Positions 3,678 through 9,060 of a stretch of 30,311 bases of DNA are shown here, piece by piece (within the stretch, counting starts at the first letter, position 1; every line of letters begins with the position of its first letter). The DNA is taken from IMG/VR virus record IMGVR_UViG_2778261541_000010, positions 1 to 30,311 of that record; one strand, 5' to 3'. The notes under the pieces are model-generated. The model was not told the origin of the DNA and searched no databases. It saw only the letters and a program-made list of their open reading frames with translations. A program made the position numbers and the translations under genes. The DNA comes from a virus (lineage: Duplodnaviria > Heunggongvirae > Uroviricota > Caudoviricetes).

Positions 3678-4495
3678 ACGTACATATCCTGTTTACGTGC
3701 CCAGTCAGGGCGTTTAATAATTTCCACTCCGCCCCATTCATCGTTGATGCGGCATTCGTGATAGGTATTCAGATCCCGGCGGAACAGAGCGTGCCCGGCA
3801 TCGACATCCGGCGCATCCAGCTCGAACACGCGTACCGGATACCGACCACAATCAATGCTTTCGCTCACGGCAAGAAAGAAAAAACCATGTGGCTGACCAG
3901 TAACCCTCATTGCGCCTTCGCGGTACATTGCGTCCTGCACGTGGTAGCGGAACTCCTCGATGTGGCGTGCAAAACGGTCCATATCTGCAACCTTTTTCAC
4001 GTCGACGATCACGTTGTGCTCGTTCAGCCATTTGTCTGGACGAATTCGGCACAACTCACCCGTATCTTCATCGTTCCAGTACATTGATGCTTCGCAGTAA
4101 CCAGGTGCTTCCAACATCCAGCGTGCCGCCGGGTGAGCCATTGCGCTATCACGCATCAGCTCCAGTTTTCGCCACTGCTCTGCATCAAGTACCGAAATCC
4201 CCATATCCGCTACATCACGAATAAATGCCTCTTCGTCAGCTTTACCTTGTTTTGTCCGACGATCGAATTTCGGTGAAACGATGAAGCGTTTGTCAAACTC
4301 TCCAGGTTCCAGAAGCAGACAGTGCAGAGCAGTACCCATGTCCAGTGCAGACTTCTTCTCTTCGTCTTCCGGAGCAGCCTTCACCCATTTCAGAAGGGCA
4401 GGGTTCTTAGCCACCATATCTAGCTGCGACTTACTCACGCCGTCACCGGCGTGGTAGTCCTCGTTGCTGATATCGAAATAAATTCCCGGATTCAT
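3674..4495 (-). CDS. PD-(D/E)XK exonuclease (YqaJ/exonuclease VIII-like), partner of the annealase
   Basis: N-terminal YHA...S.S.L and IVDVKK (D/E-x-K) motif; exo-bet pair typical of phage recombination modules. Confidence 0.7.
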   Translation of the reverse strand: MNPGIYFDISNEDYHAGDGVSKSQLDMVAKNPALLKWVKAAPEDEEKKSALDMGTALHCLLLEPGEFDKRFIVSPKFDRRTKQGKADEEAFIRDVADMGISVLDAEQWRKLELMRDSAMAHPAARWMLEAPGYCEASMYWNDEDTGELCRIRPDKWLNEHNVIVDVKKVADMDRFARHIEEFRYHVQDAMYREGAMRVTGQPHGFFFLAVSESIDCGRYPVRVFELDAPDVDAGHALFRRDLNTYHECRINDEWGGVEIIKRPDWARKQDMYV

Positions 4496-7264: not shown

Positions 7265-7465
7265 ATGGAAATCATTACACGTATTGATGCCGCAAAGCGC
7301 GGACTTAAACGCTACTACACCGGAAAACCATGTAAGCACGGACATGACAGTGAACGCTGGGTTTACAACGGACACTGTGTTGAGTGCACCATGGAATCAA
7401 ACCGTCGCATCAGGGCAGAGATTAAGCAGATCATGATTAATTCCTCCCCACAACATTCAAGCTGA
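7265..7465 (+). CDS. Small zinc-ribbon protein (C-x-H...C-x2-C), occupying the cII-like position
   Basis: YYTGKPCKHGHDSERWVYNGHCVEC motif; start trimmed to the ATG at 7265 rather than the track start at 7202. Confidence 0.5.
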   Translation: MEIITRIDAAKRGLKRYYTGKPCKHGHDSERWVYNGHCVECTMESNRRIRAEIKQIMINSSPQHSS

Positions 7466-7480
7466 TAGCGGAGATTAATC

Positions 7481-8278
7481 ATGAGCAGACATGCAACAGA
7501 TTGGGCCTGGGAGACAGATCCAGGGAGCTCGTCATTAAAGCTCATACTGCTCTCGATGGCTGACAGAGCCGATGAATATAACCTCTGCTACCCCAGCATA
7601 GAACGCCTCGTTAAAGACACTTGCCTGAATAAAAAAACCGTGCAGGCCGGACTTATATCGCTCATGAAAATGGGGCTTATTTCAGATACCGGAGAGAGAA
7701 AGGGAGCGACGAAAAGAGTGCGGGTTTTCTCTCTTAATATAACCAAAAACGGGAACATTAAAGGCAACCGGGAAGGGAGGAATGTTCCCGAAAACGGTAA
7801 TGTTCCCGAAAACGGGATGTTGAATGATCCCAAAAACGGGATGTTGAATGATCCCAAAAACGGGATCCAGAACCAGTCATATAACCAGTCATTTAACCAA
7901 GAGAGGGAGAGCAGGACAAAAACCGGGGATTCTGTGCCTCATGACCCCGGCGCAAACAACGCCGTGATGAATAACTTTGTTCCTCCTGGTGGGCCAGGGC
8001 AATTAGGCAAATTTGTCATGCATGAACAATGGCAACCATCAGATGACTTTCTTCGGAAAAGCTCATTGCAGGGGATCTACCTGGACAGTCTGCCAACGGC
8101 ACAGGAACTTGCAGAGTTCAGAATTTACTGGATGGCTGAGGGTAAGGCATACCATCAGGCACAGTGGGAGCAGAAGCTGGCAAGGCGGCTGCAGATTAGC
8201 AGACAGAAGCAATCAACATTACCTGATAACAACGTTCCGCACTGGAACAGCCCTGAAGCATGGGAGGATTTCTTGTGA
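7481..8278 (+). CDS. Replication initiator (lambda O-like) with iterons inside the coding sequence
   Basis: N-terminal HTH-like region, internal peptide repeats NVPENG/MLNDPKNG encoded by DNA iterons, C-terminal region typical of initiator/primosome proteins; GGAG RBS; followed by a P-like gene with GTGA overlap. Confidence 0.7.
   Translation: MSRHATDWAWETDPGSSSLKLILLSMADRADEYNLCYPSIERLVKDTCLNKKTVQAGLISLMKMGLISDTGERKGATKRVRVFSLNITKNGNIKGNREGRNVPENGNVPENGMLNDPKNGMLNDPKNGIQNQSYNQSFNQERESRTKTGDSVPHDPGANNAVMNNFVPPGGPGQLGKFVMHEQWQPSDDFLRKSSLQGIYLDSLPTAQELAEFRIYWMAEGKAYHQAQWEQKLARRLQISRQKQSTLPDNNVPHWNSPEAWEDFL
7741..7900. repeat. Iteron cluster (putative origin of replication) inside the O-like gene
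   Basis: Tandem 18-bp repeat AATGTTCCCGAAAACGG(T/G) x2 (7781-7816), tandem 24-bp repeat ATGTTGAATGATCCCAAAAACGGG x2 (7817-7864), shared core AAAACGGG in 5 copies including an inverted partial copy at 7746-7758, then AACCAGTCAT x2 (7871-7892). Confidence 0.7.
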
Positions 8279-9060
8279 ACAACGTTTTTACCGCGATACA
8301 AAACCGTGACGGAGAAGCCCTTTCTCGCATGTCAGGTTATGAGCATCAGTACACCAACAATGACAACGTGGTGAACATGTCAGCAGAGAGGCTTGTTGAT
8401 GCCCTTTTCAAACAGCTGAAACAACTGTTTCCGGCGGCAGTGGTAACCAACCTGAAGACGCCAGAGCAGGAAGTTGCTGCAAAACAGCAGTGGATTGCTG
8501 CGTTTGCCGAAGGGGGGATCCGAACCCGTGAACAGGTTTCTGCTGGTATGCGCCACGCCCGCGCCAGTGAATCTCCGTTCTGGCCGTCGCCTGGGCAATT
8601 TATCAAGTGGTGTAAAGACAGCAAGATGGTTCTTGGCGTCACCATTGACGATGTGATGGCGGAGTTTCACCGGTACAGCAAGGAAAAAAGTTTATATCCT
8701 GGTGGTCCCGAAAGATTCCCGTGGCGACATCCGGTTATGTACTGGGTCGTATGTGATACCCGCCGTGCAATGTATCAGCGCCAGCTTAGCGAGATTGAGG
8801 TTGAGAAACACGCGCGCAGGCTGCTCGATGATTGGGCGAAAAAGGTGGCTTCCGGACAGCAGATACCCGATCCGGTGATCAGCATACAGGCAAAGCCAGA
8901 ACCCATGAGTACGCCTCCTGACACTGGGAGAGACGTTTACCATCCACCAGGGCGAAGTTTCGGGTGCATGCCTAACGCCGCCACCCTGGGGGGAATAACA
9001 CCGGCGCAGTGGCTGATAGAGGAATACAGGCGGGGAAAGGCGGCAGGATTTATCAAGTAA
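8275..9060 (+). CDS. Replication protein P-like helicase loader
   Basis: LFPAAVVTNLK...QQWIAAFAEGGIRTREQVSAGMRHARASESPFWPSPGQFIKWCK parallels lambda P (TFPASLANRD...RRQWVLAFRENGITTMEQVNAGMRVARRQNRPFLPSPGQFVAWCR); GTG 8275 preceded by GGGAGG, ATG 8260 is the alternative start. Confidence 0.8.
   Translation: MNNVFTAIQNRDGEALSRMSGYEHQYTNNDNVVNMSAERLVDALFKQLKQLFPAAVVTNLKTPEQEVAAKQQWIAAFAEGGIRTREQVSAGMRHARASESPFWPSPGQFIKWCKDSKMVLGVTIDDVMAEFHRYSKEKSLYPGGPERFPWRHPVMYWVVCDTRRAMYQRQLSEIEVEKHARRLLDDWAKKVASGQQIPDPVISIQAKPEPMSTPPDTGRDVYHPPGRSFGCMPNAATLGGITPAQWLIEEYRRGKAAGFIK

Follow-up and report, generated by a model that had tools for sequence, protein, structure and literature searches.

A likely lambda-type replication origin inside the initiator gene of a phiV10-like temperate phage

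The phages lambda, phi80 and P22 are the classical cases of a replication origin lying inside the initiator gene. Their initiators (lambda O, phi80 gp15 and P22 gp18) are Phage_rep_O proteins in Pfam, and the GenBank record of phi80 (JX871397) annotates four binding sites of gp15, the O analogue, inside gene 15. The number of iterons varies in lambdoid relatives, with 4 in lambda and 6 in the Stx phages (PMC7466680). The general blueprint of an origin joins initiator sites, an unwinding element and the capture of one strand; iteron plasmids and oriC have two to four unwinding repeats, the exact sequence of which matters, and the initiator captures one strand (PMC5043065). On the side of helicase loading, filaments of the C-terminal domain of DnaT on single-stranded DNA mark the loading site (PMC13377028).

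The whole stretch of viral DNA analyzed here, called the window below, is 30,311 nucleotides long and 94.6-97.5% identical to the phiV10 group of E. coli phages (genus Uetakevirus). phiV10 itself is a phage of E. coli O157:H7. The gene under study (7481-8278, + strand) encodes a protein of 265 aa that is 94.6% identical to the product of phiV10 gene p43, annotated as "replication initiation protein"; matches in the protein databases range in length from 265 to 311 aa. Pfam recognizes HTH_36 at aa 18-67 (E 1.7e-10) and DnaT (PF17948) at aa 178-246 (E 1.1e-15), and the repeat-bearing linker lies between them. The N-terminal DNA-binding domain, HTH plus wing (about aa 18-85, encoded by 7532-7735, + strand), keeps the motifs ADRADE and DTGERKG-T across all relatives and is presumed to be the reader of the iterons. 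The DnaT-like domain is encoded by 8012-8218 (+ strand). The C-terminal 85 residues (aa 174-259) match the solved single-stranded DNA-binding domains of E. coli DnaT (DnaT residues 85-170; PDB 4ou6, 4ou7, 6aep, 2ru8 and 9zbt) with an E value of ~1e-20, and the Pfam and PDB matches to DnaT, confined to this C-terminal domain, include none to its N-terminal oligomerization domain. A structure prediction for the initiator, built on a shallow alignment, reached a mean pLDDT of 35 and was rejected for fold searches. The next gene (8260-9060, + strand) encodes a lambda-P-like helicase loader (Pfam Phage_lambda_P, E 1.5e-56). It overlaps the 3' end of the initiator gene, and the phiV10 annotation places its start 4 nt inside the initiator gene, at what is here the GTG at 8275. 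Just 5' of the initiator gene, a small ORF (7265-7465) that is kept in phiV10 as p42 has a zinc-ribbon-like pattern (C-x3-H ... C-x2-C); a Pfam search gave no match to it.

The first-pass annotation had called the initiator gene O-like. This name fits the predicted function only, as the Pfam content of the protein is HTH_36 plus the C-terminal domain of DnaT and not Phage_rep_O. A profile of 76 N-terminal sequences aligned HTH and wing with those of lambda O, P22 gp18 and phi80 gp15 at a probability of 78.7% (E 1.7e-5), and a five-sequence hhalign profile gave a probability of just 6.5% against lambda O. The relation of the N-terminal domain to lambda O appears only moderately supported by these comparisons, and a distant common ancestry of the DNA-reading part with the Phage_rep_O proteins is plausible.

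We propose that the repeats in the linker are quite likely the vegetative replication origin of this temperate phage, a phiV10-like Uetakevirus, and that the origin follows the lambda plan; the proposal comes from sequence comparison. In the searchable literature, the original genome papers being outside its scope, we found no earlier description of an origin for phiV10, epsilon15 or Uetakevirus, nor of the iteron sequences.

The repeats occupy 7740-7904, between the HTH_36 and DnaT domains. Tandem Repeats Finder (TRF) confirmed the tandem 18-bp and 24-bp direct repeats noticed at first reading, as an 18-nt repeat of 1.9 copies at 7781-7815 (100% match, score 70) and a 24-nt repeat of 2.8 copies at 7799-7866 (95%, score 122). 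With a 12-nt repeat of 2.4 copies at 7871-7899 (score 51), these are the three top-scoring tandem repeats of the window. The five copies of a shared core were recovered too: CCCRAAAACGG, with at most one mismatch, has five matches in the 30-kb window, all on the + strand at 7742-7863, against 0.93 expected for the whole window, and none of 100 shuffles reached five. The four copies of AAAACGGG start at 7746, 7809, 7833 and 7857 and the single AAAACGGT at 7791, and no core CC(A/G)AAAACGG was found in the 30-kb window outside 7743-7863. One copy had been described as inverted, which is not literally correct because the reverse complement CCCGTTTT, searched for throughout the window, is absent; the inversion is found inside each unit. 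As for the reported 10-bp tandem repeat, the exact 10-mer AACCAGTCAT is present, but its period is 12 nt. The repeats translate into NVPENG and MLNDPKNG within ORF 7481-8278, as had been stated.

Each iteron is an internal 16-bp palindrome, with inversions such as TTCCCG/CGGGAT or ATCCC/GGGAT. Five units stand in direct orientation on the + strand, three of them with perfect 5-bp arms. Iteron 1 (7740-7755, TAACCAAAAACGGGAA) has a degenerate left arm and lies 45 nt upstream of iteron 2 (7785-7800, TTCCCGAAAACGGTAA). The arms of iteron 3 (7803-7818, TTCCCGAAAACGGGAT) are perfectly complementary (TCCCG/CGGGA), as are those of iteron 4 (7827-7842, ATCCCAAAAACGGGAT, ATCCC/GGGAT), which carries a GATC site. 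Iteron 5, the last (7851-7866, again ATCCCAAAAACGGGAT), stands at a fixed distance from the hexamer array described below. A possible weak right-hand half-site at 7916-7931 (+ strand; ACAAAAACCGGGGATT, and AAAAAACGGGGAT in relatives) was read from the sequence and the alignment of close relatives. Two of the units are identical to annotated gp15 sites of phi80: iteron 2 (7785-7799) to TTCCCGAAAACGGTA and iteron 3 (7803-7817) to TTCCCGAAAACGGGA(A), each in 15/15 bases.

Some other features of the array region were recorded. Three GATC (Dam) sites fall within 40 nt, at 7826, 7850 and 7864, within iterons 4 and 5 or at their edges (TGATCCC, GGATCC). The left arm of the unit has GATC in enterobacterial relatives as well, so that Dam methylation or SeqA might have an influence on the origin. 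The spacer from iteron 1 to iteron 2 is flanked by a perfect 10-nt inverted repeat, 7750-7759 and 7781-7790 (CGGGAACATT and AATGTTCCCG). This repeat is probably incidental, because most close relatives lack it and have AATGAACCCG, and a cruciform was rejected on the same ground. A terminator-like match on the minus strand (7856-7837) is a by-product of the palindromic unit and an A-run. Consensus sequences for DnaA boxes and IHF sites (TTWTNCACA, TTATNCANA, WATCAANNNNTTR) had no match in 7300-8400.

To follow the array among close relatives, 80 IMG/VR contigs were compared in which the N-terminal domain is essentially identical. The first-pass annotation had named loss of the repeats from close homologues as a sign against an origin; the exact unit of iteron 1 was found in 80/80 of these loci, and so was an array, 165-261 nt long. 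The arrays vary only by whole in-frame units of 18, 24 or 12 nt, and they hold 5-9 cores (6 being the commonest number and 5 that of the window). Expansion and contraction by whole 18-nt or 24-nt units may reflect the little constraint on the linker at the protein level. Across the 475 units of the close relatives, CC-AAAACGG is essentially invariant, and in the CCC/ACC codon the third position never changes while the first does. Selection on the peptide would be expected to leave the reverse pattern in the sequence.

Several records of the close set call for comment. In phage YDC107_2 (CP025713; locus L004, 715-1000), the initiator copy is interrupted by several 1-nt indels, each of them within a homopolymer run of the iterons, and is either a pseudogene or the product of sequencing errors. 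Because such indels may be errors, this frameshifted copy was set aside as evidence for conservation in a pseudogene. Escherichia phage BP9 (PP488543; locus L002), a 138-kb Vequintavirus record, has a phiV10-type replication module at 134.9-135.7 kb, near the end of the record, and the 115-kb unannotated record of phage PH444 (PP350014) carries one as well; chimeric assembly or contamination may explain both. In some units of close relatives, such as that of locus L017 (AATGTTACCGAAAACGGGAAT), the core ACCGAAAACGG fits 10/12 positions of the papillomavirus E2 consensus ACCG-N4-CGGT. The E2 binding site also sits in the viral replication origin, and the likeness is taken as coincidence.

A one-genome-per-species scan then supplied a distant set of 80 prophage loci, with 37-85% identity in the N-terminal domain, from Enterobacterales, Vibrio, Pseudoalteromonas, Marinomonas, Acinetobacter, Desulfovibrionaceae, Sphingomonadales and Burkholderiales. 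Nearly all have tandem repeats with palindromic cores right after the N-terminal domain, with periods of 17, 18, 22 or 24 nt. Over 81 loci, with both strands counted, the core CC[AG]AAA[AT][CT]GG occurs 153 times in the linkers (27.5 kb) versus 10 times in the other 228.6 kb, an enrichment of ~127-fold. The copies are spread over two or three reading frames in 23 loci, so that the same DNA is read as P-K-N-G or as T-Q-K-R-D; the lambda iterons are likewise read variously, as IPQNEG, SPKTRD and SLKLGD. These comparisons point to the DNA, and not the peptide, as the conserved object.

The repeats also travel with the N-terminal domain when the rest of the protein is exchanged, as far as the sequences compared here tell. 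Edwardsiella phage GF-2 shares this domain and joins it to a lambda-O-like C-terminus and a P gene, and Vibrio phage Her joins it to an unrelated C-terminus; both have a clear tandem array at the same position. Acinetobacter phage AP22, where the gene with the shared domain adjoins a DnaB-type helicase gene, has the same cores at the same position, and no tandem array was scored in its linker. In the Uetakevirus members SPN1S and Tyrion, where the likeness is confined to the DnaT-like C-terminal domain, the phiV10-type repeats are absent; a search of their initiators for iterons of their own gave none that were convincing. The Tyrion linker (Enterobacter phage; locus L010, 1320-1343), between a different N-terminal domain and the same DnaT-like C-terminus, carries GGATCAG in 3.4 copies, and other iteron-like repeats were not found in it. 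In Salmonella phage SPN1S (locus L009, 730-2010), the DnaT-domain initiator is followed by a DUF1064 gene, and the P-like loader gene is absent, unlike in phiV10 and Tyrion. Arsenophonus nasoniae (locus L110) has iteron cores and 12-nt repeats twice, once in the gene itself (about 1895-2280) and once ~1350 nt upstream of that set, at about 540-930; this points to a tandem duplication of the replication module.

Directly beyond the last iteron, the window has three hexamers, AGAACC, ATAACC and TTAACC, 12 nt apart (7869-7904, + strand), which form the AACCAGTCAT repeat scored by TRF and are a putative DNA unwinding element. The three (7869-7898) are a weaker version of an element of the whole family, two of them (ATAACC and TTAACC) being degenerate. 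Directly after the last iteron, 65 of the 83 non-redundant loci have 2-3 AGAAYC hexamers spaced 12-13 nt apart, and pairs of GAAYC number 116 in the linkers of the 83 loci versus 8 elsewhere (189-fold). The array keeps a fixed distance from the last iteron and is found in two reading frames across the family. The family consensus reads GTCCCAA...GGGAC-aC-aGAATCTatCAaaGAA.Ct..cA.taGAAtC, with GTCCCAA...GGGAC directly before the first GAAYC and often an A-run after the element. The element persists where the center of the iteron differs, and it accompanies C-terminal domains or loaders of at least four types. The last iteron of GF-2 is separated from the start of the lambda-O-like sequence (TCCGAGAATTCTGACGAATCC) by 38 nt, and the hexamer array takes up this interval, exactly where lambda has its AT-rich unwinding region. 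Sequences resembling the AGAAYC element were also seen in P22, where GAATCAGTCA directly follows the last iteron (locus L172, ~905-925), and in phi80 (AAGAACAAGAAC; locus L173, ~3745-3765). This likeness hints that an AGAAYC-type motif is older than the split of the two initiator families.

Duplex stability was compared over the same region. For 71 loci, the array was ranked against the 40-nt stretches of its own locus; it belongs to the least stable of them, with a median at the 1.4th percentile and with 90% of the loci in the top 10%, and the iteron region, taken as control, has a median percentile of 27.6. The hexamer array of the window reaches only the 4th-12th instability percentile, depending on window length and comparison stretch. 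Within the gene, 7868-7904 is the second least stable stretch. The least stable 36-nt stretch is the left flank of the array, 7724-7760, which overlaps iteron 1, has a nearest-neighbor free energy of -42.4 kcal/mol and belongs to the top 1% of all 36-nt windows of the 30-kb sequence for low stability. No AT-rich tract of the lambda kind was found in the window, where the lowest GC values are 37.5-42.5% and 7860-7919 has ~42%. Since the hexamer array is usually the least stable DNA of its locus, it is probably the unwinding element, and this is the least secure step of the mechanism proposed below.

Could the repeats be nothing but a slippage-prone, low-complexity peptide linker (NVPENG/MLNDPKNG) devoid of a DNA function? 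The free variation of copy number in close relatives, always in frame, would agree with this, as would the low-confidence model, in which aa 86-187 have no secondary structure. We nevertheless consider it highly improbable. Every unit is a DNA palindrome, the third codon positions and not the first are the invariant ones, and the 127-fold enrichment falls on one strand and at one site. Moreover, the same core serves two to three frames with unrelated peptides (PKNG, TQKRD) and periods of 17 and 22 nt, and two of the units are identical to phi80 gp15 sites that phi80 reads in a different frame (FPKTG). A function in DNA leaves room for another reading, in which the repeats are initiator sites used mainly to control replication or expression, by titration, by handcuffing or by acting as a roadblock when the initiator and P genes are transcribed, and the DNA opens elsewhere. 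Plasmid iterons do serve both initiation and control (PMC5043065), no strong AT-rich tract adjoins the array of the window, and it is the left flank and not the hexamer array that is least stable there. Nevertheless, the array is co-linear with those of lambda and phi80, in which such sites are the origin, an element of low stability is conserved family-wide at a fixed distance past the last iteron, and the 30-kb window has no further copy of the iteron; we find a role in control alone improbable. An origin at the repeats is the reading that we retain, and an iteron origin inside the initiator gene, lambda-like as the first-pass annotation had it, was supported by all the comparative tests applied.

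More doubt attaches to the second half of this origin. The AACC/AGAAYC array could be a duplex binding site for some other host or phage factor, or could be kept for the peptide QNQS(L/Y), and not be an unwinding element at all. Its GC content is not extreme (~40% in the window), and a peptide G-x-QN(Q/L)S is common in the family. The peptide explanation has to face an array that is read in two frames ("PESIRNLKD" in locus L154 versus "IQNQSYNQ" in the window) and that can combine 12- and 13-nt spacing within itself; in addition, the array is the least stable part of most loci and replaces the AT-rich region of lambda in GF-2. We hold this alternative to be unlikely, though a good deal less so than the two preceding ones, and keep the hexamer array as the probable unwinding element.

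If the repeats are the origin, replication would start as follows. Dimers of the N-terminal winged-helix domain would bind the five 16-bp palindromic iterons (7740-7866), as suggested by the palindromes, by the repeats travelling with this domain and by the identity with phi80 gp15 sites. The resulting nucleoprotein complex would strain the adjacent 36-nt array of AACC hexamers (7869-7904) until it opens; the position, family-wide conservation and low duplex stability of the array favor opening at this place. By analogy with DnaT in the E. coli preprimosome, the DnaT-like domains, concentrated by the iteron array, might then coat or hold the exposed single strand and, with the lambda-P-like protein, bring in host DnaB. 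Transcription from the early rightward promoter would pass through the origin, as in lambda. In the literature searched, we found no experimental binding or replication data for this phage or for other members of the HTH_36-type family.

An origin would thereby be assigned, with exact coordinates of the predicted minimal replicon, to the phiV10-like prophages, which are common in E. coli and whose initiators so far go by no more than the names "primosomal protein", "DnaT-like" or "HTH protein". A second family of initiators, much wider than the first and with iterons that have the same arms, would join lambda in having an in-gene origin, and the annotations of this HTH_36-type family mention no origin. 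Of all the parts, the conserved hexamer array has the best chance of being new, and it could help to locate origins in thousands of prophages. The model also suggests a testable role for a DnaT-type single-stranded DNA-binding domain in origin opening. More tentatively, and with somewhat less than even confidence, we suggest that an in-gene origin of two parts is common to the very large family of HTH_36-type prophage initiators, which spans Gamma-, Beta-, Alpha- and Deltaproteobacteria. The second part would be no generic AT-rich tract but a sequence-specific AGAAYC array with 12-13 nt spacing, placed at a fixed distance from the last iteron and retained irrespective of C-terminal domain and helicase loader. 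The initiator or the helicase would use the array for strand-specific landing, and in phages of the phiV10 branch filaments of the DnaT-like domains would form on it. If true, this would be a DnaA-like mechanism of marking the loading site in a phage initiator.

The closest parallel in layout is ori-lambda. As in lambda, the proposed origin sits in the linker between the N-terminal DNA-binding and the C-terminal parts of the initiator, its imperfect palindromes are arrayed in direct orientation and fall in several reading frames, the unwinding region (putative in the window) lies downstream of the last iteron, and a P-type loader gene comes next. The annotated lambda iterons (ATCCCTCAAAACGAGGGA and relatives) likewise have TCCC...GGGA arms and an A-rich center. 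However, ori-lambda consists of four 18-bp iterons and an AT-rich region, whereas the units of the window are 16 bp long, two bases shorter, and three AACC/AGAAYC hexamers at 12-nt spacing take the place of a 40-bp AT-rich tract. The initiators differ as well, with HTH_36 and not Phage_rep_O (PF04492) at the N-terminus of the window protein and a DnaT-like domain and not that of lambda O at its C-terminus. phi80 resembles the window in having its sites inside the initiator gene and a P-type gene (gp14) next to it. It departs from the window in its initiator, as gp15 belongs to Phage_rep_O and has a C-terminus of the lambda O type, and in the frame in which the units are read; in addition, a short A-rich stretch with AAGAACAAGAAC follows the last iteron instead of the 12-nt repeat.

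The iteron plasmids (RK2, F, R6K and pPS10) and oriC share with the window the arrangement of initiator sites beside 12-13-nt tandem repeats of low stability. Unlike in these systems, the proposed origin lies wholly inside coding sequence and 7300-8400 has no DnaA boxes, and the initiator is a single winged-helix-type domain joined to a DnaT-like domain. The database names "primosomal protein" and "DnaT" describe only one domain of this protein, because its N-terminus is an HTH domain. With E. coli DnaT (primosomal protein I) it has in common the single-stranded DNA-binding domain at its C-terminus, whereas in place of the N-terminal domain of DnaT it carries a predicted sequence-specific HTH domain.
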